A DNA stretch of 20,000 bases from NCBI GenBank assembly GCA_021432655.1, contig MU271195.1, positions 170,385 through 190,384 of the forward strand, read 5' to 3'. The position numbers and the translations under genes are program-made. Shown here one piece after another: positions 877 to 18,900 of this stretch. Position 1 is the first letter of the stretch. Every line of letters starts with the position of its first letter. This DNA is from Atractiella rhizophila (Eukaryota). A model generated the notes under the pieces. That model was not told the DNA's origin, searched no databases, and was given only the letters and a program-made list of their open reading frames with translations.

Positions 877-1103
877 TGCCAGACTCTAATTTATCACTCT
901 CAGCCTTGAAGTCATCATGTAAGGCATATATTTCAGGAATATGACGTCTGTTCGTCTATCCACGCTACAAGTAACTGTAGCTCTGTGGGATATGTAAGGC
1001 GGCTCTCGAGTCAACCTGATCTTTTTTAACAGCAACGGCGTTGCAATTCTCCGATTTAGATCCTGCATTCTGTCATATCTGAGAACAAGTCATCCTTATG
1101 AAG

Positions 1104-2336
1104 CTACATGGACAGATAATCGTTGATTTCCGCTTCCGTCAGTTTCCTAAATGTTGGTGGAGCAAGCGGTCCAACAGCTTTGCCTTGAGGTAACCCAACA
1201 ATGCCCATCTCCAGTTTCGACGCGGTTAATTCGCCCTCGAATCCCTGACAGCATATAAGTTAACCAGTTTGCACGGAAGAGCTATGTTCTACCTCTTTCA
1301 GGGTGAGCAGTGCTACATGAGCCGCATCCACCAATGAAATATCGTCATCTAGGCACAAGCCTGAGCGTGATCGTGATGGTATAGAAGTGTGGTGAGGCTC
1401 ACTGTAGCGTTTTTCCAGGAACGTCTTTGCGTTCACCATATTTTTACCGATTGCACTACAACGTTACAGCTGAGCAAGCAAAAATTGAAGGCAACGTTCC
1501 TAACCTTGCTTTCCACGCCCCTATGTAAATTTCAGACGTGCTGCAGCTGGCGAAGAGGAGGAGAACGTACAGAAGCTACCGCTGGGATCTATCTGCCAGA
1601 GCGAGGGTCCGGTAAGCTCGTCGTATCCCGCTACCAGTAAGCTAACTCCATAAGGACGAACACCCCTATGCTCCCAAGTCATCAAATAAATGAAGACGAC
1701 TGACAAGCAACGAACCCTGATTGCGTGGCATCTTGCATTGCTGTAGCGATCTCGCTGACCAGAACACGCGTCGGGGGATACTCTGCGTAAATCTTCCAAT
1801 ATGCCTGAGCAGACTTTCTAGCTTTATTGACAAGGACCCGGAAATCGGGACCCATTCCCGAATAAACCATGCCGATATTCGGGCAGACCAGTGCCACCTA
1901 TAGTTTGTCAGGCTAGAACTGCAGCAGATTCGACGTACCTTCTCAATCATTGAATCGTCCACCAATGGAGACGGTGACTTTTTCTCAGTTGCTATCACGA
2001 TGCCATCCTTAGCTAAATGCTTGATCCATCAGCGTTGTTGGGGTAGCACAGGGAACATCCAATTTCACCTTTGATGCCCAGGCTAGTAGCGCCAGCTGAA
2101 ACTGCCTGTACGCGTGTCAAAAAAGAAAGCTACAACAGATAAATGAGGTACCTGGAGGGCATGCTCAATCTGGACGAGTCTGGCAGTCAAGTCAGCATGA
2201 TCAGTCAATAATGTTGACGGACTAGTGTGCATACTTTCCGGATGGTGAGAAAGTCGTTAGAGAGAAAGAATAGCTAAAACACAGTTCATTAGCAGCACAG
2301 TTTACGAATTAGCACACACCTGCTTGTTCCTGCCAT
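1104..2336 (-). CDS. PRE8: 20S proteasome subunit alpha-2, about 11 exons
   Basis: ATG at 2336. Exons read [13 protein letters not shown] / LVQIEHAL / [12 protein letters not shown] / GIVIATEKK / [30 protein letters not shown] / [13 protein letters not shown]...QIDPSGSF / WAWKAS / [17 protein letters not shown] / ...[15 protein letters not shown], with the stop at 1104-1106. These are typical alpha-2 motifs. Confidence 0.95.
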
Positions 2337-2497
2337 GACGCTGCTGCACTGCTGTTGTCGTGGTTGTCCTCGAATTGAGCTGAATTGGGCTGCAAGACGC
2401 GTCACCTGTTTCAACTTCTACGCATTTGCTCATCGCGTCTTGCAGCATTTGATTAAGTGTCCAATCCACCAGCTAACTGTTCCATTATTTCCAACCA
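2337..2497. promoter_or_regulatory. Probable bidirectional promoter between PRE8 and RAD1, with an MCB-like ACGCGT at 2397-2402
   Basis: Only 161 bp separate the divergent start codons. Contains ACGCGT (2397-2402) and TCGCGT (2433-2438). Confidence 0.55.
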
Positions 2498-5400
2498 ATG
2501 AAGCTCTTGCCTTATCAACTGGAGATCCGCAACCTCCTCTTTCCGACCTTGCCGAGCAACGACTCACTGCTAATCCTCGCGCCAGGATTAGGGTTGAGGA
2601 AAGTCATTGTCGCGTTTCTGCAAGCCCAAGTCGAGCTCGATTCCAACAATCCTGCCGTCGAAGGTGGAAAAACTGTGATCGTGAATGCCACAGAATCAGA
2701 TATTGATGGCATTCGCGAAGAAGTTGGTTTAAGTCTGGTCGACCTGGATGGTCTTAACGGTGTGGAAGAAAGGTAGAGACCCAAATTTTTAACGGAAACC
2801 GCTGACACAAGTGGTCCAAGATATCATGCCTATCTAGAGGAGTCTTGCAAACTTATCGCTGTGACTTCTAGAGTCTTTATTACCGACCTTTTGACTTCTA
2901 AGATACCCCTGAACAAGTTAAGCGGGATTGTGCTCCTGCACGCAGAGGAGTACGAATCGGAGCTTTGAAGTCTCTGTCTCTCACTAATAACGGCTGCTGT
3001 CAGGGTGACACCTAACTCAACGGAAGCCTTTATAGCAAAATTGTATCGCGATGGCAATAAGGTGTGTCTTGAGCAAACTAAAGACACTGTCTTACGTGCA
3101 GAAAGACCGGGTTTTTGAAAGCGTTCTCGGACGCTCCGGAAGCCTTTACTCACGGAATCTCTCCACTCCAGTCTGTCCTCAGATGTATGAAACTGCGAAA
3201 GGTGTTGCTCTGGCCAAGGTGAAGGGACTTCTGCCCCACCTGTAGTTTCTCATGACCCCGCACTGGTAGGTTCCATGAACTAGTACAAACATGCCTTTCG
3301 ACGGAGCATCGGGTGGATGTTATCGAGCTGCACCAACATTTGAGCGCAAACATGGATCAGATTCAGACCGCCATCATTGAGTGCATGGATGCCACACTTG
3401 CAGAAGTTCGTAAAGCGACCGCAGATGTGAGTTAACTTTACACATTGCCATCAAATCTGAATCCTGCTCAGGTCGACCCTGAAAATCTGGACATGGAAAA
3501 CGCTCTGTTTCGTTCCTTTGACTCGATTCTGCGCAATTATTTGGACCCAGTGTGGAACAAAATCTCTCCACGAACGCGGCAGCTTATCGGAGACCTCGCA
3601 ATGTTGCGGAGATTGCTACGGTGAGGCGTCCCTTCACTTTGAACTAGGTATCACTCATGAGGGTGCAGTTACCTCCTATCTTACGATTGCGTCTCGTTTA
3701 ATACACTAATTGAGACTATTATCCAGTCGAACACGACAAATCAGTTTACGGGAAACTTGAGACAGAATCAAAGTCCATGGTTGTTCTTGCAAGCTGCGGA
3801 AACAATCATTCAAACATCCCGAAGACGAGTCTATGAGAGACGAGATCCAGTGTCCCAATCGTTGCGGAAAACTCAGCCGCGAGAGGGAACACTGTTACCA
3901 GACGAAGACGAAGAAGCCGCTTTTGAGGCATCAGTGCAAACAACAGAGGAAACAGATGCCCATGCTGACTTGGATTGGCTGCCAGAAAATGTCGAGCTGA
4001 TTCTAGAGGAACAACCAAAGTGGGATGAACTGTTCCTTCTGATACAAGAGATCGAAAGGGAAATTTTCCTAAACCAACACGGGCAGTCAGCAAGTACTCA
4101 TTCCATTTGAGTCGTCACCAAAAATGTTCATTTTTGTCATGAAAAGCTTCACGCAACACAATCCTCATCATGTGTTCCTCGGCGTCGACCTGTGCCGCCC
4201 TCCGCGAGTACATTTGCGACCGACACGATGAAGACCACAGGCAACCACAACGGTTTCACAAAATGATGCTGCGTCGTTTCAGAGAATATCTGTTAGGGAT
4301 GAAGGATTTGTCCAGTTCAAAGAAGGTCTCCGGTCAGGCGGTGGACTCGACCCAAATGGAGACATCTACGACAGATGACCATCTCAGTGCTGGACTCAAG
4401 AGAAAAGCAGAATGGAGTCGTGGCAGAGCACCAGCGAACAAGAGACGCAGAACTCGCGGAGGTTCTGTAACCGCTGCATCATCGCAGGATATGAATGGTC
4501 GCCAAGTTGCAGACGGATTTGCACTGAACACTGCGTACACGGCCCCGTCTCTATTTGGGTGGCTAAATTTTCATCAGGTTACTGGAGAAATTAAGTCTCG
4601 AGACGATGCCACAGCCCCTTACAAGTACAAGTCTTCTTGACGGGTCATCCTTGGAAGACAACTTTTGCCTCCTGGAACCGGACAACGAGGTTGTCATACA
4701 GTCCTACTCTGGGGATGATGATGACTACTTACTCGAGGAATTGCGGCCTCGCTTCATTATCATGTTTGAGCCAGATCCTGCATTCATACGCAGAGTAGAG
4801 GTAGGTGAATACGCATCTCCGCTGGTTACATTTGTTGATCTGGGACACAGGTCTTCCGTGCCAGCTATACCCATATAGCAATCCGTGTTTATTTCATGAT
4901 ATATTCGAACTCGACAGAAGAACAGGTCTATTTGAGCACGATTCGAAAAGAGAAAGATGCTTTCGAACGTCTCGTGCGAGAGAATGCGGTATTTCGATCG
5001 ACTTTCGTCCAACACAGCTTATTTATTGCTATCTAGAATATGGTCATCCCTCTGGAAGCAGAACACAGAGGCTCCCAATCTACCGAAGCAGATATCTCGC
5101 GCACAGTGAGCTCTCGCAAAGCAGGTGGCGGAATGGTGTCTGCTGTCCCACAACAGGTTTGTGCATGTCCAGCTTGTCGACGTGACTTGAACCAGCGCCA
5201 AGATCATCGTGGACCATCGCGAGTTTAGGTCTACGCTCCCATTCATGCTATACAGCTCAGGGCTCAAAGTCATACCCATGACGCTTTTAGTTGGTGACTA
5301 CGTCCTTAGCCCAACCATCTGCGTCGAACGGAAAAGCATTCCCGATCTGATACAAAGCTTGAGTTCTGGTCGGCTATACCAACAATGCGAATTGATGGTG

Positions 5401-6044
5401 GCTCAGTGAGATTGTTCTGTGTATTCCAAGTTGTGATGTGATTGACGGATGACACTCCTCCAGCTATCAAACACCTATCTTGCTAATCGAATTTTCTGAA
5501 AACAAATCTTTTAGTTTAGATGTATGTTCCTCGTCCCTATCAGACAACATCGCGCTCAGGCGGTCACAAGACATACACCAATTCTAATTCTAATCAGCCC
5601 GCGCGACCAACAGAAAGTGTTTACACTGATTTGGAGTCGCTCCAATCGAAAATTGTCCTTCTCACGATGTCGTTCCAAAAGTTGCGAATTATATGGAGCT
5701 CGTCGGCACACGAAACGACGCTTATTTTTCAAGACCTGAAACAAAGAGAAGAGGAGCCTGATGCGAAGACTGCTGTTGCCGTCGGAGAACAGCTGGAATC
5801 AGTGACGCGATTTGATCCAGGTGCCGAGAACTGGAATCAATCAGGGCAAGAAGCCCTCCTCTCACTGCCAGGTATTGATAACAAAAACTTTCGATATTTA
5901 ATGGAGAAGGCTGTCAACTTTCAGGAAGTGTGTGCCATGTCGAATGGAGGATTAGAGGATTGTATTGGGGCTGAACAAGGCCAAAAATTATGGAAGTTCC
6001 TGAACAGGTCAATTGAACAACCCCATACACATAATTCTGCCTAA
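2498..6044 (+). CDS. RAD1: XPF/ERCC4 DNA repair endonuclease (RAD1/rad16/MEI-9 family), multi-exon
   Basis: N-terminal LLILAPGLGL; GFLKAFSDAPEAF; RQNQSPWLFL; LEEQPKW; LEELRPRFIIMFEPDPAFIRRVE. ERCC4 nuclease core IIVDHREFRS...GDYVLSPTICVERKSIPDLIQSLSSGRLYQQ. C-terminal LRIIWSSS and HhH LLSLPGI. Stop at 6042-6044. Confidence 0.95.
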
Positions 6045-7892: not shown

Positions 7893-8353
7893 AGAAGATC
7901 AAGAAGTTTAGAGAGGACAAGGAAGGCGCTTATTCCTCCAAGGAATTTGATCAATATCTTAAGGCCTGTGGTATCCAGCGCGAACAGACGAGCAAGAACT
8001 CTCCTCACCAGAATAGCAGGGCAGAACAAAGCAATAGGACGATTCAGGAGACTATGGTTGCCATGTTTGAAGAATCTGGGCTTCCGCTCTTTCTCTGGCC
8101 ATCTGTCGCTTCAGCGGTTGTCCACATTCGCAACAGACAGCTTCAAGCTTCAATCAACCATGCTATTCCCCACACAAAACTCACTGGACTTACTCCAACC
8201 ATCTCCAGATTCAGAATCATTGGATGCACTGCCTATGTTCAAGATCCTAAGCTCCTTCTGAACTTGTACTCGAAAATGCGCATTTCTAGGCTATTCCCTT
8301 GCAGCGAAAGGGTGGGAGTTCTGGGATCCCATTAGAAAGAAGGTCTACGTTCG

Positions 8354-8944
8354 TGTTAGGGCTGACACTATGTGCGGTCACCGACGGGCGATGCGTCTGT
8401 AGTGGAGATAAACCTAAGTGCATAATATGACATGAAGACTAACCTGTAGTGGAGATAAACCTAAGAGAATACTCTAAGGTCACCTCCACTACTCTCTGAT
8501 CTATATATACAAGCGGAATAACACTGCCACAGAGCGTAGGGGAGAGCAGATGAAACATATAAGAGAACTAAAGGAGAAGTTGAGAGAATCTGATGCTGGA
8601 TGGAGCTAGGGGACAGAGATTGGTGGTCAAAGATGATGATATTGATAGGGAAACACATACCTAGGGGACAGAGATTGGTGGTCAAAGATGATGACCGCCT
8701 AACCTGCCCCCTAGGGGGCTAAAACTCCGAAATGAAGCAAACACAACAAAGGTGGCTGACCACACAACACAAGACCACAAAATATAACACCTAATCCAAC
8801 AGAAGTGACAGTGGGATTACATGGAGTTAATAAGAGGAGGATAGGCACAATTGGGCTAAGTGGTAATGTAGGTGCAAATGGGCGAACGGGTGCCAATTCG
8901 CAGGGAACGCAAATGGGCAATTTGCGTAAGATGCAAACCTGACA
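8354..8944 (-). mobile_element. Solo LTR family B (about 365 bp net), TSD GTTCG, itself interrupted by a family A solo LTR
   Basis: Termini TGTTAGG...CCTGACA; GTTCG at 8349-8353 and 8945-8949. Removing it restores KKVYVRDVARFDERE. TATA-like TATATATA at 8502-8509. Orientation is inferred from the TATA-like box and the intron-like segment. Confidence 0.9.
8581..8801 (-). mobile_element. Solo LTR family A (221 bp), TSD GAAGT, nested in the family B LTR
   Basis: Reverse-complement homolog of the LTR at 11951-12117. GAAGT at 8576-8580 and 8802-8806. Confidence 0.93.
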
Positions 8945-10361
8945 GTTCGAGATGTTGCCAGATTTGATGAGAGAGAGATGCTCTGCAAGGTGAGAAAGGA
9001 GAAAATTATGTTGGAAGAGCCACAGGGACAACTTGATGAGTGGAAGCAGCATCAGGATCAGGTGGGAGATGGACAGAACAATGCTCCAGCCGCTCCTCCA
9101 GTCAGGATTTCGCTAGACAACGACGAGGAAGATGAAGATGCATGGATTCAACAGCCAGGAGGAGCACCGCCTACACCTCAGGAACAACACAGACCACTTG
9201 GAATACAGTCTCCAAATCGATTTCAGCCCCTGCAGGTCGTCAAAGAAGAAGAAAGAGAGGCGTCTCCAGACCCACTACAGCTTGTGCCTGAACGCTTTAG
9301 GACACCACCTCGTCAGTACACCATGCAGAGAGATCCTTGGACAGGAGTTCACATGCCTACATTCTCAGAGTCTCCAGATCCACTCCAGATCATCCCAACA
9401 ATGCCAGATCGACCTCCTCCAGCAGCTACAACACCTCCTCCTGTCACCAGGTCTTCAAGAATTTATTCTACAAGTAGAGGACGTCCTGTCGACAGATTTA
9501 GGACCCTAGAAGCGCCTCAAAACAACGACAAAGGGTCAACAGACGAGCTTGGGATGTTGGTATAGGAATGTGACATCCTCACTGAGCCAGAGGCGATGGA
9601 ATATGGCTATATGCTTGTCACAGAACATGCCATGAGTGCAGCAACAGGAGTAGAGGTCCCTCAGTCATATTCAAGAGCGATGGCAAGCCCAAATGCGAAG
9701 GAATGGCATGAAGCGACAGTGAAGGAGATTCAATCTCACTTGGACAACAAGAGTTGGATTCTGGTCAAACCGCCTAAAGGAGCAAAAATCGTTGGTTCTC
9801 GATGGGTGTTTGCGGTTAAGAAGAAGTCGGATGGTTCTATCGAGCGCTTCAAGGCCAGATTCGTCATCAAGGGGTTCTCTCAACGCTCTGGATTCAACTA
9901 CTTTGATACTTTTGCATCAACGGTCAAATGGGCGACACTTAGGACGATTCTTTCGCTCGCTTGTGTCTTGGACATGGAGCTGGAGTCAGTGGATATCTCT
10001 ACGGCATTAACGGCGATATGGATGCAGAGGTCTATGCACAACAACCAGAAGGTCATCCACAGGGTCCTCCAGAGTACGTTCTCAAGGTAATCAAGGCCAT
10101 CTATGGCACAAGGTAAGGAGGACGTCAATGGCAGAAGAAACTCGATAAGGAACTCGTTGATATGGGATTTAAGAAGATCAAGAGCGACTCTAGTCTGTGG
10201 ATTTACTCGAAGGCGGACATCAAAGTACTTGTCCCGGTCTTTGTGGATGATATTACGATCGCTAGCACATCAAAGGGTGCTGTAGAGGACTTCAAGAGGG
10301 AGTTAGGAAAGCGATTCAAACTCAGAGACCTTGGACCAACGGAATTCCTACTTGGGGTTCG

Positions 10362-10570
10362 TGAGAGAATCTGATGCTGGATGGAGCTAGGGGACAGTGA
10401 TTGGTGGTCAAAGATGATGACATTGATAGGGAAACACATACCTAGGGGACAGTGATTGGTGGTCAAAGATGATGACCGCCTAAACTGCCCCCTAGGGGGC
10501 TAAAACTCCGAAGTGAAGCAAACAAAACAGAGGTGGCTGACCACACAAACATATAACACCTAATCCAACA
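10362..10570 (-). mobile_element. Solo LTR family A (209 bp), TSD GTTCG, inserted in the RT of element 1
   Basis: GTTCG at 10357-10361 and 10571-10575. The empty site CTTGGGGTTCGTATTAGG is present in element 3 (about 17723-17740, minus strand). Confidence 0.95.
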
Positions 10571-11647
10571 GTTCGTATTAGGAGAGATAGAAAGCGAAGA
10601 ATGATGTGGTTGGATCAAGAACAGTATGTCAAGGACCTTCTGGAACGCCAACAGATGGATGACTGCAACCCTGTCCTCACTCCTCTCAACATTGGACACG
10701 GTCTCAGCAAGCAGGACTGCCCTCAGAAAAAGGAAGAACAAGAAGAAATGCGCACAATCCCTTACAGCAACGTTGTTGGCTCCATGATGTACTTGGCCAT
10801 CTCCACTCGTCTGGATATTGCTCACGCAGTCTCTGTCCTTGGAAAGTACCTCTCTAATCCTGGAAAGAAGCACTGGGAAGCGGCCAAGCATCTTCTATGG
10901 TACCTCAAAGGCACTCAGAACTTAGGAATTGAGTATTCTGCAACTGGTTTTGACCTCAAGCAACCTTTTCACACTTTCTGCGATGCAGATTTTGCTGGGT
11001 GCAAGGATACTGGACGTTCTACGGGAGGCTATCTCCTCAAGATAGGCAATGGAGTGGTCAGTTGGAGCAGCAAACTACAATCCCTCGTTGCCCTTTCCAC
11101 AACTGAAGCAGAATATGTCTCAGGAGTCTCAGCTGGCCAAGAAGTCGTCTGGCTAAGGAATCTTTTAGAAGAAATTGGCTTCGCTCCTCAAGGTCCTACT
11201 CCCCTCTTCACAGACAGTAGCAGCGCTCTCCAGGTATCCAAGAACCCTGAGCACCATGGTCGAATGAAACACCTGGACCTTTGCTTTTATTGGCTCAGAG
11301 ATGTTGTTGAGATGGGCAAGATCAGTCCAGTCTTCTGTCGGGGTGTCGATATGCCAGCAGACCTCCTCACCAAGACACTTCCAGTAGCTAGCGTGGATAA
11401 GTTTCGACTTATGATGGGTTTGCGCCCCTACCCAAGTGTATGAGGCAGTTATGGGGCGCAATAAAAAAATCCTTTCCCCCTCTGTGGAGTTATAAGACGC
11501 CGCTTTTAGCGGTACGAAGACTTTTCATCTTCTTTTCATGCAAAACTAATATGCTTTCTGCTTTATATCGAGTATACATTGTATGAATTTGGTGGGAGAT
11601 TCTCTGGATGTGGTGGGAGCGTCAAGAGACAGCTGCCCAGGTGGTAG

Positions 11648-11782
11648 TGTTAGTTGTAGTGTGTTGTTTTGGTCATCTGCCTCTTATGACTCATATGAGT
11701 CATCACTATGTAGTTTAGTTTTGCCTAGGGGTGTTGGTGCTCATTATTGACCACCAACTACTCCTAGCCTTAGATCCTTACA
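11648..11782 (+). repeat. 3' LTR of element 1 (family C, about 135 bp, form lacking the intron-like segment)
   Basis: TGTTAG...CCTTACA, preceded by PPT-like AGGTGGTAG (AGGTGGGAG in element 3). Homologs at 14496-14642 and 15987-16126. The left boundary is inferred from the PPT; no 5' LTR is available to confirm it. Confidence 0.8.
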
Positions 11783-11950
11783 CATTTTGGCTATGCAAAG
11801 ACAGTGGCTTTGGTTTCTCAGTCATTACTGGAAGAACCTTACAAAAGATGTCAGAAGATATGTTGACTCCTGTCCGAGCTGCCAGAGAAATAAAGCTGTA
11901 AATCAGAACCCATTGGAGCTTTCAGACCCTCATGTATACCACCATCAAGA
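11783..11950 (+). pseudogene. Ty3/gypsy integrase zinc-binding domain fragment
   Basis: HFGYAKTVALVSQ, then a frameshift, then YWKNLTKDVRRYVDSCPSCQRNK. This is the typical gypsy integrase zinc-binding motif. Confidence 0.8.
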
Positions 11951-12117
11951 TGTTGGATTAGGTGTTATATTTCATGGTGTTATGTTTGTGTGGTCAGCCA
12001 CCTCTGTTTTGTTTGCTTCACTTCGGAGTTTTAGCCCCCTAGGGGGCAGTTTAGGCGGTCATCATTTTTGACCACCAATCTCTGTCCCCTAGCTCCATCC
12101 AGCATCAGATTCTCTCA

Positions 12118-12127
12118 TGGTAGCGAG
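12118..12127 (+). promoter_or_regulatory. Primer binding site, probably for initiator tRNA-Met
   Basis: TGGTAGCGAG directly follows the LTR's terminal CA. TGGTAGCG matches the Ty1-type tRNAi-Met PBS. Confidence 0.8.
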
Positions 12128-12304
12128 AGAGGTGGCTAGTGATTGACAGATCAGTTTTGCCACCCACTTGGTTGAAAATTTTGATCACTCAGCCATCCGT
12201 TGTCCAATCGGTTTGAAACGTTGGGATCATAAACGAGACCCCCTTACGCCTATATCCACCCATTTCTACGAAGATCGGACGATCCAAACTCGAATTTTAT
12301 CACC

Positions 12305-13297
12305 ATGGCCGAAGAAAGTAAAATTTTGATTACCCCCCTTGGAGAGAAGAACTATGGCACCTGGTGCATTGATATGCAGGAGGAATTGATGCGAAAGGGG
12401 TTATGGGAGATAGTCTCTGGAGTGGAGACAAAACCAGAAGATTTGAAGGAACAAAAACAGTGGCAAAAGGACAGCTCCAAAGCGGCTGGGATCCTGTTCC
12501 TTAGCCTAGAAGCGACCCAGAAAGCCCATGTGGTCTCTGTCCTTCAAGATCCAGTCAAGATCTGGTCTACCCTTCAAGAAATCCACCAACAGAAGCGCTC
12601 CTCAACTCGTTTCACTGCCCTCAACACCCTCCTTGCCATCCAGAAGAAGGAAAACGAATCTCTCATCACCCTGTGTGCCAGAAGCGACCAGCTGCTTCTA
12701 GACTTCACCAACACGCTTTCCAAAGACTATTCCCTTGATGATTTGAAGGAAGATCTCCAATCCTTCGCTCTCATTCGCTCCTTAGGCCCAGAATACACTA
12801 GTTTTGTCCAGAACTTAACCCTGATGACATCCACCGACCTCCAATCGATCAAACAAGCATTCTACTCGATCCAAGCCACCAAGAACTCGGAGGAAGCCAT
12901 CTCCAACACTCAAATGGCAAATCAGGAGATCCAAGCCACCAAGAACTCGGAGGAAGCCATCTCCAACACTCAAATGGCAAATCAGGCATCCAGCAGCAAC
13001 AGAGGACGAGGAGGATGGCATCCCAGAGGTGGCAGAGGTGGTGGAAGAGGAGGAACTCGAGATTTTTCGCAATCTGTGTGCAACTACTGCCACAGAAAAG
13101 GCCACTTCATCTCCCACTGCCCAGAAACTGCTTCTGGACGCAATAGGATCGAGTTGGAGAAGTACAGATCGAAGTATGGCAAGCTGGAAGTGGTGAAGGA
13201 AGCCAAAGTCGAAGGGGGAAAGCCAGAATTCGCTGGAGAGACAAGTTATGCAGCGGTAGATGATACCATTAGTCGCCAGAAAGCTGGGACTGACTAG
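12305..13297 (+). CDS. Copia Gag (330 aa) with CCHC zinc knuckle; ends at a TAG just before the protease motif
   Basis: N-terminus LGEKNYGTW...LMRKGLWEIVSG, an RGG-rich tract, and CNYCHRKGHFISHC. Confidence 0.88.
   Translation: MAEESKILITPLGEKNYGTWCIDMQEELMRKGLWEIVSGVETKPEDLKEQKQWQKDSSKAAGILFLSLEATQKAHVVSVLQDPVKIWSTLQEIHQQKRSSTRFTALNTLLAIQKKENESLITLCARSDQLLLDFTNTLSKDYSLDDLKEDLQSFALIRSLGPEYTSFVQNLTLMTSTDLQSIKQAFYSIQATKNSEEAISNTQMANQEIQATKNSEEAISNTQMANQASSSNRGRGGWHPRGGRGGGRGGTRDFSQSVCNYCHRKGHFISHCPETASGRNRIELEKYRSKYGKLEVVKEAKVEGGKPEFAGETSYAAVDDTISRQKAGTD
12868..12986 (+). repeat. Perfect in-frame 60-bp tandem duplication in gag
   Basis: IQATKNSEEAISNTQMANQ occurs twice, identical at the DNA level. 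Confidence 0.95.
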
Positions 13298-14495
13298 ATT
13301 ATTGATACAGGAGCAACTTCATCAATGACTCCACATTCCCACTTCTTCAAATCCTATCAAAAACACGTTGTACCCATCAGAGTTGCAAATGGAGAAGTGA
13401 TCTGGTCTACTGGGATAGGAGAAGTGGTGATTGAGGCGAAATTGGAGGATAAAAAGTCGAAGAAGGTCACCATTCACAATGTCCTACACGTCCCCAAATT
13501 GTGCAGCAATCTCCTATCTGTTTTCAAGCTCACAATCTTCGAAGGTGTAACTGTGACCATCATTGGGAGCAGAGTACGCTTCCTCAAGGCTGGAAATCCC
13601 TGTTTCACAGCGACAGTTGATCACAGGAGAGGAAGCATGAATGCCATCATTGATGGAAGAACACTCATGGCCTCAGAATTCGTTGCACACGCCTCCTCTC
13701 CCCTCTAAACGCTTCCCTGTGGCACAGGAGACTTGCCCACTTAAATCATGAAGATGTAAAGCGAATGCTGAAGAAAGGACTCGTGAAAGGAATGATTCTG
13801 GACTCAGAGGACCCTCCTGACCCCATCTGTGAGCCCTGCATCGCTGGGAAGCAGCATAGGATCTACAACAAGGCTGCAGAGAATAGGGAGACGGAAATTT
13901 TAGGGAGGATCAGCTCAGATCTTCATGGACCGCTCCCAGTTGCCTCAAGAGAAGGATTTCGCTATTGGGTGACGTTTATAGACGAGGCAACAAGTCACTG
14001 GACGATTGCTTTTCTCAGGAAGAAGTCAGAAGCACCTCAACGCTTTAAGGAGTACAAAGCTGTGATGGAGACCTTGACTGGAAGGAAAATCAAGAGATTC
14101 AGGGAGGACAAAGAAGGCGCCTACTCCTCAACAGATTCGAAATTGTGGCATCCAGCATGAGCAAACGATTAGAAACTCTCCTCATCAAAATGGGAAAGCA
14201 GAGAGAGCAAATAGGACGATTCAGGAGGGTATGGTGGCGATACTGGAGGAATCTGGTTTGCCACTATTCCTCTGGCCTCACCTTGCTTCGGCTGTTGTTC
14301 ACATCAGGAACAGATCCCCCTCTTCCTCCATCCATCACTCCATTCCCTACACAAAATTAACAGGACAATTGGTCGATATTTCACATTTCAGAGCTCCACT
14401 GCCTATGTCCAAGTTCAGAAGGAAGAAAGACAGCACAGTCTGGCATCCCATACACGCAGATGTGCCTTTATAGGTTACTCTACCAACGCTAAAGG

Positions 14496-14642
14496 TGTAA
14501 GGATCTAAGGCTAGGAGTGTTTGGTGGTCAATAATAAGCACATTGGAGAAGTATAGAGAGACATACCTAGGAGTGGTTGGTGGTCAATAATGAGCACCAA
14601 CACTCCTAGGCAGAACTAAACTACATAGTGATGACTCATACG
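14496..14642 (-). repeat. Partial family C LTR (form carrying the intron-like segment), truncated on the U3 side
   Basis: Reverse complement of about 11694-11782 plus an extra 56 nt (14511-14566). No second TSD is visible. Confidence 0.88.
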
Positions 14643-15695
14643 AAATTGATCAACATCTGGTACTTTCCCATCCTTGATATCTGTGAAAAACTTCTTTACC
14701 ACATTCTCATCTATGCTTCACTTCCCCAACATATTCTTGCGAAGTGGGACATTGTTTAAGTTGGTCTTTGGCAGTGGGTACGGGACCTTGGACCAATACA
14801 GAAAGTTGTTGTCACATATGTTGCGCTTGTGATTGTTTGTATTCTTCTCACCATACCCATCCTTTTGCTTCTTGCATTGACCACAAGTCTTTTCAGCTCC
14901 AAGGTTGCCCTTCTTTGTTGGCTTTGTGTGCGTCACTTTCACTGGTGGAAGAAGTGTCATTTAGAGTGTCCAGAATACTTTGATTGCTGCTCAACACATT
15001 GTTAGTAAATTCCTTTTCTTTTTAATAAAATTGTTCAAACTCACAGTCTCCTCTGGCTACTCTCTGAATATGACGAGCAATCTCCTTCTCAATTGCAAAT
15101 AAACTATTTTTGTGTATCAAAGATTTGGGGGCTCTGAAAGGGCTAGATTATCGTGAGGCGATATCAGTGAACCTAGGCGTAAACAACCTCAACCTTCTAC
15201 AGTGTTGAGGTTGAGATGACGATTCCAGAGTTGAGAAGGATGGGATGGTTTTGGTGAATCCCAGGATGGAGTAGATAGTTGAGAGGTTGGAGTACGCGAT
15301 GAGATGTTGCTTGAATGAGTGAGAAAGTCGAAGTTTGATGACGGTACACCTAAATCAATGCCTTTAATACCCATTCCACAGTGAAACAAGAACAAGAAAG
15401 AACGGACCGGCTGCAAAATCAAGACTACTTTTGCGCTTACTGAAAGAAGCTTCTATCCCCTTGCTATTTCCAAGTGCAAAATCCAGATCCTTCTGTGAAT
15501 GCTCGCTTTCCTGATCATCTGATGAATAATCTCCAGAAACCATTACACCTTCAGTTTGAAAAAGAGAAATGTGATGTTTAAAGAGGTTATTGTTTATGTA
15601 GAATATACTTAACTGAGAAGTTAGTTGGACGTATTTGGTTATATTGTCGGTAACAGCTCAGAAACAGAGATAGAGGATTATTATGATGGAGAGTA

Positions 15696-15986: not shown

Positions 15987-18900
15987 TTTAAGGATCTAAG
16001 GTTGGTGGTCGTAATAATGAGGCATTGATGACTTCTAGAGGCAGAACTAAACTACATAGTGATGACTCATACGCGTCATAAGAGTCATAAGAGGCAGATG
16101 ACCAAAACAACACGCTACAACTAACACTCCCACCTGGGCAGCTGTCTCTTGATGCTCCCACCAAATCCAGAGAATCTCCCACCGAATTCACACAATGTAT
16201 ACTCAATATAAAGCAGAAAGCATATTAGTTTTGCAATGAAAAGAAGAGGAAAAGTCCTCGTACCGCTTAAAGCGACGTCTTATAACCCCACAGAGGAGGA
16301 AAGGGATTTTATTGCGCCACATAACTGCCTCAGACACTTGGGTAGGGGCGCAAACCCATCATAACTCGAAACTTGTCCACGCTGGTGACTGGAAGTGCCT
16401 TGGTAAGGAGGTCTGCTGGCATATCGACACCCGGACAGAAGACTGGACTGATCTTGCCCATCTCAACAACATCCCTGAGCCAATAAAAGTGAAGGTCCAG
16501 GTGTTTCATTCGACCATGGTGCTCAGGGTTCTTGGATACCTGGAGAGCGCTGCTGCTGTCTGTGAAGAGGGGAGTAGGACCTTGAGGAGTGAAGCCAATC
16601 TCTTCTAAAAGATTCCTTAGCCAGACAACTTCTTGACCTGCTGAGACTCCTGAGACATATTCTGCTTCGGTAGTAGAAAGGGCAACGAGGGTTTGCAGTT
16701 TGCTGCTCCAACTGACTGCTCCGTTGCCTATCTTGAGGAGATAGCTGTAATACGAATAACATAAATGAGCTTCTTCGTACTTTATGAGTCATTTTCTTTT
16801 GTCGCAGTCTTGCTTCCGTGACCTCGTTTCTCTCCCTCACACACAACCACCATCTTCTCTGAGCTTGCCTGTATTGAGGTATAGCTAGTGCTGTGTGTGA
16901 GGTGAGTACTCGTTAATTTCTACCTTTATTGTGCTTTGCTCATCGGGCACTTGTTTAAGGGCACATTTCATCTCCCTTTCCGAGTTCGAGGTATTTTATT
17001 GTTCTAGAACACTCAAAGAGGGTGTGTTATTTCCTTTTCACCCTCTTCTCGCTTATTCATGTCCGTTCTCTTTCGTAGGGCTGTGCCAACAGCCTTGTCC
17101 GCTCTCTGTTAGCCCTCGCGGACTCTTTGGGTGTTTTAGGTACGCATACTTCATTGTTACTTATGCTTCTATGTTCCTTTTCTTATACTATGCAAACCAT
17201 GTTTTAGAACCCATTATTTCGAACTCACCGCCGCTAAACGAGTCTTGCCAGCTTTCACTTAGTCGCATTATAATAGCCTCCCGTAGAACGTGCAGTATCC
17301 TTGCACCCAGCAAAATCTGCATCGCAGAAGGCGTGAAAAGGTTGCATGAGGTCAAAACCAGCTGCACAATACTCGATTCCTAAGTTCTGAGTGCCTTTGA
17401 GGTATCGTAGAAGATGCTTGGCCGCTTCCCAGTGCTTCTTTCCTGGGTTAGAGAGGTACTTTCCGAGGACAGAGACTGCATGAGCGATATCTGGACGAGT
17501 GGAGATGGCCAAGTACATCGTGGAGCCAACAACGTTGCTGTGAGGGATTGTGCGCATTTCTTCTTGTTCTTCCTTTGTCTGAGGGCAGTCCTGCTTGCTG
17601 AGACCGTGTCCAACATTGAGAGGAGTGAGGACAGGGTTGCAGTCGTCCATCTGTTGGCGTTCTAGGAGGTCCTTAACATACTGTTCTTGATCCAACCACA
17701 TCATTCTTCGCTTTCTATCTCTCCTAATACGAACCCCAAGTAGGAATTCCGTTGGTCCAAGGTCTCTGAGTTTGAATCGCTTTCCTAACTCCCTCTTGAA
17801 GTCCTCTACAGCACCCTTTGATGTGCTAGCGATCGTAATATCATCCACAAAGACCGGGACAAGTACTTTGATGTCCCCCTTCGAGTAAATCCACAGACTA
17901 GAGTCGCTCTTGATCTTCTTAAATCCCATATCAACGAGTTCCTTATCGAGTTTCTTCTGCCATTGACGTCCTCCTTACCTTGTGCCATAGATGGCCTTGA
18001 TTACCTTGAGAACGTACTCTGGAGGACCCTGTGGATGACCTTCTGGTTGTTGTGCATAGACCTCTGCATCCATATCGCCGTTAATGCCGTAGAGATATCC
18101 ACTGACTCCAGCTCCATGTCCAAGACACAAGCGAGCGAAAGAATCGTCCTAAGTGTCGCCCATTTGACCGTTGATGCAAAAGTATCAAAGTAGTTGAATC
18201 CAGAGCGTTGAGAGAACCCCTTGATGACGAATCTGGCCTTGAAGCGCTCGATAGAACCATCCGACTTCTTCTTAACCGCAAATACCCATCGAGAACCAAC
18301 GATTTTTGCTCCTTTAGGCGGTTTGACCAGAATCCAACTCTTGTTGTCCAAGTGAGATTGAATCTCCTTCACTGTCGCTTCATGCCATTCCTTCACATTT
18401 GGGCTTGCCATCGCTCTTGAATATGACTGAGGGACCTCTACTCCTGTTGCTGCACTCATGGCATGTTCTGTGACAAGCATATAGCCATATTCCATCGCCT
18501 CTGGCTCAGTGAGGATGTCACATTCCTATACCAACATCCCAAGCTCGTCTGTTGACCCTTTGTCGTTGTTTTGAGGCGCTTCTAGGGTCCTAAATCTGTC
18601 GACAGGACGTCCTCTACTTGTAGAATAAATTCTTGAAGACCTGGTGACAGGGGGAGGTGTCGAAGCTGCTGGAGGAGGTCGATCTGGTGTTGTTGGGCAG
18701 ATCTGGAGTGGATCTGGAGACTCTGAGAATGTAGGCATGTGAACTCCTGTCCAGGGATCTCTCTGCATGGTGTACTGACAAGGTGGTGTCCTAGGGCGTT
18801 CAGGCAGAAGCTGTAGTGGGTCTGGAGACGGCTCTCTTTCTTCTTCTTCTTCTTCTTCAACCCGAAGGTGCTGAAACCGATTTGGAGAATGTATTCCAAG

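Follow-up and report, generated by a model that had tools for sequence, protein, structure and literature searches.

A hairpin module in fungal LTRs: a candidate 3'-end RNA switch for rebuilding an intron

We find that long terminal repeats (LTRs) of fungal retrotransposons carry a hairpin module that is real, selected and widespread. In this module, an arm in U3 pairs with R1, the exon end that lies directly upstream of an intron-like segment, and this segment itself ends in a copy of R1 (R2). We put at about 60% the probability that the hairpin is a 3'-end RNA switch, which would steer strand transfer to R2 and so rebuild the intron. LTR elements are expected to lose introns that are spliced from their genomic RNA; if our reading is true, many fungal elements are designed to escape this loss and, in intron-rich hosts, acquire a spliced leader, and the module would provide a compact self-restoring intron for retro-vector design. 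As the module is shorter than 120 nt and makes predictions for where its RNA starts and ends and where the transfer junction lies, the proposal is directly testable. The analysis concerns a 20,000-nt stretch of DNA (hereafter the window) from Atractiella rhizophila, the genome of which amounts to 51.5 Mb in 1998 contigs.

Results

LTRs of three retrotransposon families in the window

The three families distinguished by the first-pass annotation are LTRs of fungal retrotransposons, A and C belonging to copia and B to chromodomain gypsy elements. All three share one module order: TATA-like box, arm, R1, intron ending in R2, and a short U5. The flagged B copy is a solo LTR of a chromodomain Ty3/gypsy element (8354-8944, minus strand) with a 5-bp target duplication and an A LTR inside it. 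Its TATA-like box (8502-8509, minus strand) lies 42-44 nt before the start of R2 homology and 32-34 nt before the predicted RNA start. It is followed on the same strand by the outer arm as defined by folding (8476-8492, in U3 and 5' of the predicted RNA start), the predicted first 10 nt of B RNA, which the complementary primer-binding site (PBS) marks as a putative self-primer (8466-8475) and which make up the innermost pairs and the loop of the hairpin, R1 (8444-8465), which by sequence and folding is the exon end and the 3' side of the stem, and a 47-nt intron-like GT-AG segment (8397-8443) with R2 at 8397-8418 and a hypervariable base at 8419.

The A copy within it, also a solo LTR (8581-8801, minus strand, 5-bp target duplication), has a 55-nt intron at 8606-8660, R1 at 8661-8694 and a stem pairing 8692-8715 with 8660-8684. 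In a second A solo LTR (10362-10570, minus strand), the intron occupies 10387-10441 and 10473-10496 pair with 10441-10465, and a truncated C LTR (14496-14642, minus strand) has a 56-nt intron at 14511-14566 and a stem of 14591-14611 with 14565-14586. Two plus-strand LTRs lack the intron and keep the hairpin: an A 5' LTR (11951-12117, hairpin 12038-12092), with a tRNA-type PBS and, at 12233-13297, copia gag behind it, and a C 3' LTR (11648-11782, hairpin 11725-11767), which lies 3' of RT/RNase H and a purine tract. A rearranged C-type LTR (15990-16125) has lost arm, R1 and donor and forms no hairpin (z +1.75).

A first look yielded 435 (B), 115 (A) and 141 (C) candidate copies, 40 of each of which were scored. 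Families A and C have the TG...CA LTRs with 5-bp target duplications, tRNA-type PBS and purine tract of Ty1/copia elements, and the intron-bearing form of their LTRs is found both before the tRNA-type PBS and after the purine tract. The open reading frames place integrase before RT, as in copia, and Pfam matches comprise PF14223 for gag as well as GAG-pre-integrase and rve; the 300-aa RT-end/RNase H piece had no Pfam match at 1e-3. Family B shows a 5-bp target duplication in 20 of 35 complete copies, and internal reading frames flanking B at other copies match Chromo, SH3_Tf2-1 and Retrotrans_gag, with a Ty3-type gag after the 5' LTR and the end of integrase plus a chromodomain before the 3' LTR, the arrangement of chromodomain Ty3/gypsy elements. 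DIRS-type split repeats and Helentron-type repeats were also considered and dropped, as target duplications, PBS and gag/integrase context are those of ordinary LTRs. LTR length in B varies from 339 to 820 bp (L002-L030), mostly in short G+C-rich tandem repeats of U3. The U3 of family C carries tandem TGACTCA words (11686-11703, 14631-14640 and 16062-16088), which we take to be AP-1/Gcn4-like.

Geometry of the hairpin

In B, positions 8474-8492 pair with 8446-8465 (minus strand) through 18 base pairs, two of them G-U, at -29.1 kcal/mol (z = -2.8 when folded in a 141-nt context), and the hairpins of C and of both A copies reach z scores of -3.7 to -4.0. The hairpin that the first-pass annotation placed upstream of R1 in all three families is therefore present in each (z -2.8 to -4.0). 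It had been described as ending at the donor, which is correct for A and C, where the stem includes the final base of the exon and the G that opens the intron, but not for B, where it stops two bases before the donor. The TATA-like run of B is 9 nt from the arm, close to the 10 nt originally given, and the A hairpin as originally quoted matches no single window copy letter for letter and mixes the copies at 8660, 10441 and 12092. In one A-type LTR (L040:270-520) the hairpin is flipped and the unit doubled, the order being R and the first bases of U5 as reverse complement, reversed arm, donor.

The module recurs in unrelated LTR families

A scanner for 'AG|GT ... AG' with a repeated exon end, applied to 1.84 Mb (both strands, overlapping loci), added families D-I and brought the reference modules in the own genome to 11. 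At all 11 of their donors a hairpin with a z score of -2.4 to -7.7 was found in this set, which was not blind, as folds were visible while families were named. For comparison, a hairpin was seen at 1 of 14 host donors (spliced according to the RNA run described below) and at 0 of 3 ends of module-less copia LTRs (two families). The hairpin is real and not a product of chance.

Metagenome loci were then retrieved with the window's RT/RNase H piece, and the best 80 of 381 (50-57% identical, one 95%) were searched for modules by repeat and position only, without folding. Among these best 80 loci, 40 contained a sense-strand module; of the 60 loci in which RNase H is followed by 350 nt or more, 38 did. 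They yielded 28 distinct modules, own family C and one false positive included, and 26 of these 28 folded with z <= -2.5. The stem extends to exon base -1 in 22 of the 28. The structure recurs although B is unrelated in sequence, as noted at first pass for three families; arm and R1 are complementary in dozens of unrelated LTR families. GC donors occur in metagenome copia modules L271, L320, L321, L324 and L332, with the hairpin layout unchanged. In family E (L242-L247), U5 measures just 6 nt from acceptor to PBS, which would give a strong-stop cDNA of about 40 nt.

Covariation, conservation and strand bias

Covariation, which had been proposed as a check on the hairpin, is strong at the level of families and sparse at the level of columns. 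It is strong across families because, among the 28 metagenome arms, the best partner of an R1 is its own arm in 19 of 28 cases, with a median arm-R1 energy of -25.7 kcal/mol for own arms versus -12.4 kcal/mol for others (own upstream control, -6.5 kcal/mol). In columns, three two-sided changes in an anchored outer stem distinguish A (44 copies) from C (55 copies), family D has two adjacent ones between subfamilies (2 of 7 copies, one lineage), and single ones occur in E (1 of 28 copies) and in the H stem (1 of 12). In the flagged family, no two-sided compensatory change was found among 114 B copies; one subfamily replaces a G-U pair by G-C (51 copies) and an A-U pair by a U-U mismatch (52 copies). 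In a comparison of related metagenome families (11 pairs), the base pair is retained in 4 of 7 two-sided changes (p 0.38), and 18 one-sided breaks occur, many of which probably come from shifted bulges. Between H subfamilies, the arm is 93-100% and the stem 80-100% identical, as against 29-57% for the linker and 47-58% for the loop. In D-G, much of the stem falls within R, and the own arm ranks 4-9.

The G-U pairs read at first pass as a sign of an RNA structure do not amount to a significant strand bias: the sense strand has the lower energy in 4 of 11 own and 15 of 28 metagenome modules (p 0.22), G-U outnumbers A-C by 9 to 3 (p 0.15), and antisense folds are equally strong, so that the stem could also have a role in cDNA. 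In B, the sense strand is favored by 5.8 kcal/mol. We consider it rather probable that the arm is a selected U3 element that works as a position-dependent RNA switch.

R1 is predicted to be masked at the 3' end

It had been proposed that R1 or the splice signals are hidden only at the 3' end. For R1, folding models agree, predicting stronger masking than for R2 in the 3'-LTR context only. There, opening R1 is predicted to cost more than opening R2 in 11 of 11 own and 27 of 28 metagenome modules (medians 12.6 vs 7.1 kcal/mol), and R1 in the 5' context costs 6.3 kcal/mol. For the splice signals the outcome depends on the family: the predicted cost of opening the donor rises by at least 5 kcal/mol in A, C, F and H2 and by less than 2 kcal/mol in the other seven, B among those with nearly no donor masking (only 2.5 to 3.5 kcal/mol in the flagged copy). 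Since R1 is dearer to open than R2 throughout and the rise at the donor depends on the family, hiding R1 would be a general property of the module and hiding the donor would not.

RNA start and transfer junction

The spacing of promoter and repeat fits the earlier suggestion that 5' transcripts lack the arm, which lies 5' of the RNA start predicted from the B self-priming site and the TATA distance; a hypervariable base in B, described below, points the same way. The distance from a TATA-like box to the beginning of R1/R2 identity is 30-36 nt in C, E, F and H1-H3 and 39 nt in D; A, G and I have no match to such a box. In the metagenome, 11 of 28 modules have the box, with R2 identity starting 31-37 nt after it (one at 41). 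R2 identity in B begins 42-44 nt after the box, 10 nt later than in copia, which fits the prediction from loss of a 10-nt primer. Of 24 B 5' LTRs, 15 are followed, after 2 nt, by a perfect 10-nt complement of 8466-8475, as against 0 of 12 other LTR ends, and we infer that the B PBS serves Tf1-type self-priming by complementarity to the predicted first RNA bases. Of the 18 B stem pairs, 16 have their 5' partner upstream of this predicted start, and the modeled primer:PBS pairing probability is 0.93 for RNA beginning there and 0.00 with the arm included.

In B, the base that immediately precedes R2 is hypervariable, with up to four bases, in all three intron-length classes (minor fraction 0.51 of 49, 0.48 of 33 and 0.44 of 9; another column reaches 0.45 in the 49-nt class), and the matching base at R1 is constant in 93 of 97 copies. 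Reverse transcriptases can add untemplated bases at a transfer junction, and we read the hypervariable base as a likely scar of such an addition. The B transfer junction would then map to the R2 start, consistent with the transfer to R2 that had been postulated. In C, about two thirds of 29 copies have a different base at -26 in R2 than in R1; thus either only part of the homologous stretch is rewritten or rewriting does not always take place.

Intron character and leakiness

R2 contains the branch-like word and the acceptor. Metagenome introns are 49-66 nt long, with GT or GC donors, YAG ends and a branch-like word in 23 of 26, and host introns measure 41-56 nt, so that the LTR introns are host-like in length. 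In donor, branch-like word, YAG and length, the LTR segment thus has the sequence characters of a spliceosomal intron. An RNA library of this organism (run X2), kept as contigs, has host introns joined; no LTR joint was present among the 15 of 23 matches listed, all of them contigs for which intron-less DNA copies would be a confounder. Two X2 contigs cover 8476, and no LTR joint, start or end is readable from them. A second run (X1) had zero depth across the LTRs, which carries no evidential weight.

Clean intron-less copies account for 9 of 114 (B), 13 of 47 (A) and 14 of 60 (C) in best-match samples biased to intron-bearing queries. Among six LTR pairs with matching target sites (five further pairs were left out), intron numbers agree in three (1/1, 1/1, 0/0) and differ in three (3/1, 0/1, 1/0), two of the discordant pairs having identical U3-R1. 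Because pairs disagree, gains and losses also occur after first transfer, by slippage or recombination, and intron-less DNA copies are therefore no proof of splicing. For four intron-less B 5' LTRs, two candidate partner LTRs were found, both intron-less. The commonness of intron-less and multi-intron LTRs means that the proposed switch would be leaky. In family D (L021:2074-2340 / L240, G000:C155), the 5' LTR has three tandem intron units and the 3' LTR one; each R2 start has a different base, U3-R1 is identical and the target duplication matches. Weaker stems in intron-less C copies (p 0.007) were set aside, as these copies are also older (p 0.005); restricted to young copies (6 vs 41), the comparison gives p 0.057.

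Discussion

A proposed switch and its alternatives

RNA from the 5' LTR would start at about R1; as it has no arm, the donor would be free, the intron would be spliced, and the short strong-stop cDNA would be a copy of R1 plus U5. At the 3' end of the RNA, transcribed U3 would supply the arm, which would fold onto R1, and the RNA would end at or just after R2, unspliced. The cDNA could then anneal to R2, which is open, and not to R1, which is hidden, and its extension across the intron, R1 and U3 would restore an LTR with its intron. The copia stems additionally take in the last exon bases of the donor and may weaken U1 binding; in gypsy family B it would hide the 3' copy of the self-primer instead. 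As regards the position-dependent RNA switch of the first-pass annotation, the arm outside the predicted start and the modeled masking of R1 speak for it, and donor masking in B and the G-U bias do not. The chances are about even that the module represents a widespread, so far undescribed fungal LTR design, common to a self-priming gypsy lineage and a large lineage of copia elements; in it, a promoter-proximal arm would toggle between 'splice' at the 5' end and 'unspliced, polyadenylate, cDNA to R2' at the 3' end, and a spliceosomal intron would be rebuilt from spliced RNA in each cycle.

It is unlikely, though combinable with the strand-transfer switch, that the hairpin serves mainly 3'-end formation, by analogy with foamy viruses. 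An intronic poly(A) element would then be silenced in the 5' LTR by U1 binding and be spliced out, and in the 3' LTR the arm would block U1, with cleavage near the R2 end and transfer to R2 without any hiding of R1. The word AATA, separate from the branch-like word that sits inside R2 (mostly at -13/-14), directly precedes R2 in 17 of the 26 metagenome modules compared, as against a mean of 2.1 and a maximum of 7 in 2000 shuffles, and stands at that distance in 0 of 14 host introns, which suggests that a foamy-virus-like poly(A) switch may operate as well; the stem end at exon base -1 in 22 of 28 modules and the foamy virus precedent (PMC3694450) point the same way. However, AATA is absent before R2 in B, E and F and could be a second branch-like signal, the predicted donor opening rises by at least 3 kcal/mol in just 6 of 28 metagenome modules (by less than 1.5 kcal/mol in 16 of 28), and in B, D, G and I it is hardly or not raised.

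The lack of a significant strand bias would agree with a stem acting in DNA, either in nascent minus or plus cDNA, where it would keep R1 and R2 from slipping, or as a promoter element in inverted form. Such slippage clearly occurs, as the discordant LTR pairs with otherwise identical U3-R1 attest, and the arm lies within the core promoter. We nevertheless regard a DNA role as quite improbable: arms are unrelated across families yet matched to their own R1, unlike a factor-binding site, the flagged family B prefers the sense strand by its 5.8 kcal/mol, and the stem end coincides precisely with an RNA signal, the donor. Very improbable is a neutral origin, with fold-back copying during reverse transcription leaving an inverted R1 that is kept or remade without selection, and with tandem duplication around an AG-GT junction giving the intron its shape. 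The flipped hairpin in L040 is evidence that such inversions happen, intron-less copies keep the arm, and age explains the weaker stems of intron-less C copies. Bulges and G-U pairs specific to a family are retained across dozens of copies, which argues that the arm is not remade in each cycle; the arm is conserved as linker and loop drift, and the hairpin is found in both copia and gypsy elements and in 26 of 28 distant modules, the donors of which are canonical and the introns 49-66 nt long. Conservation has thus already largely refuted the neutral reading.

Relation to known systems

A close parallel to the module is the foamy virus LTR, in which 13 U3 bases, present only in 3'-LTR RNA, refold the region of the major splice donor in R, a change proposed to block U1 (PMC3694450). 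In both systems identical LTRs would act differently through a U3-dependent fold at the donor, which in the fungal module is a prediction. In the consulted part of that account (PMC3694450), the foamy virus acceptors lie outside the LTR and no complete intron, R duplicate or intron rebuilding is described, whereas in the fungal module an arm of 15-20 nt pairs directly with the exon end. Family B resembles Tf1/Tj1-type self-priming gypsy elements (PMC4600332) in a PBS that complements a part of the LTR some 32 nt past the TATA-like box, in its chromodomain and in its Tf2-like SH3; it differs in a primer match of 10 nt that begins 2 nt behind the LTR, and the text seen for Tf1/Tj1 describes no LTR intron, duplicate R or upstream arm (PMC4600332).

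Penelope-like elements carry in their pseudo-LTR a short leader intron, about 46 nt after the start, that is spliced, essential for expression and yet retained in new copies (PMC2377424). The fungal module would likewise keep a short leader intron in new copies, its splicing being predicted; Penelope-like elements are not LTR elements, their repeats do not arise from strand transfer, and the portion of the paper at hand describes no exon-end copy or masking arm (PMC2377424). For the copia element Tto1, an RNA structure of the 3' R region is proposed to set the annealing site of strong-stop cDNA (PMC3061985, excerpts); in that element an open loop favors annealing to the one R present, and here the stem would exclude one of two R. 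In the fungal copia element GalEa, a Conserved Hairpin Site takes the place of the PBS after the 5' LTR (PMC5445492, main text). The present hairpin is similarly conserved and tied to a fungal copia LTR, but it is part of the LTR itself and precedes an intron, and the elements that carry it have an ordinary PBS; the main text of that paper does not use the word 'intron' (PMC5445492). In the passages available of the literature searched (including PMC3061985, PMC4600332, PMC12130899, PMC2377424 and PMC5445492), we found no description of an LTR intron with an end repeating the exon, or of an upstream masking arm; supplements or repeat databases could mention such introns.

Genomic setting of the window

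Up to about 6050 the window holds intron-rich fungal genes, followed by a nest of decayed copia elements. For an exon of the neighboring gene, the nearest Atlas clusters have few members on record, which come mainly from Basidiomycota, a tentative lead. Within the window there is no tRNA gene, and a scan of 8300-14700 returned no Rfam family at gathering score and two chance-level matches only. Two host genes are arranged head-to-head (2470-6044, plus strand, and 1100-2240, minus strand) and are both spliced in RNA run X2; they presumably encode an XPF/Rad16-like nuclease and a proteasome alpha subunit. The minus-strand gene has an apparent 13-nt micro-exon between 1457 and 1570. In the nest, LTRs of A, B and C are inserted in one another and in copia coding regions (8349-8949, 10357-10361), and the B insertion and the second A insertion (8349-8949 and 10357-10361) have the same 5-bp target sequence.
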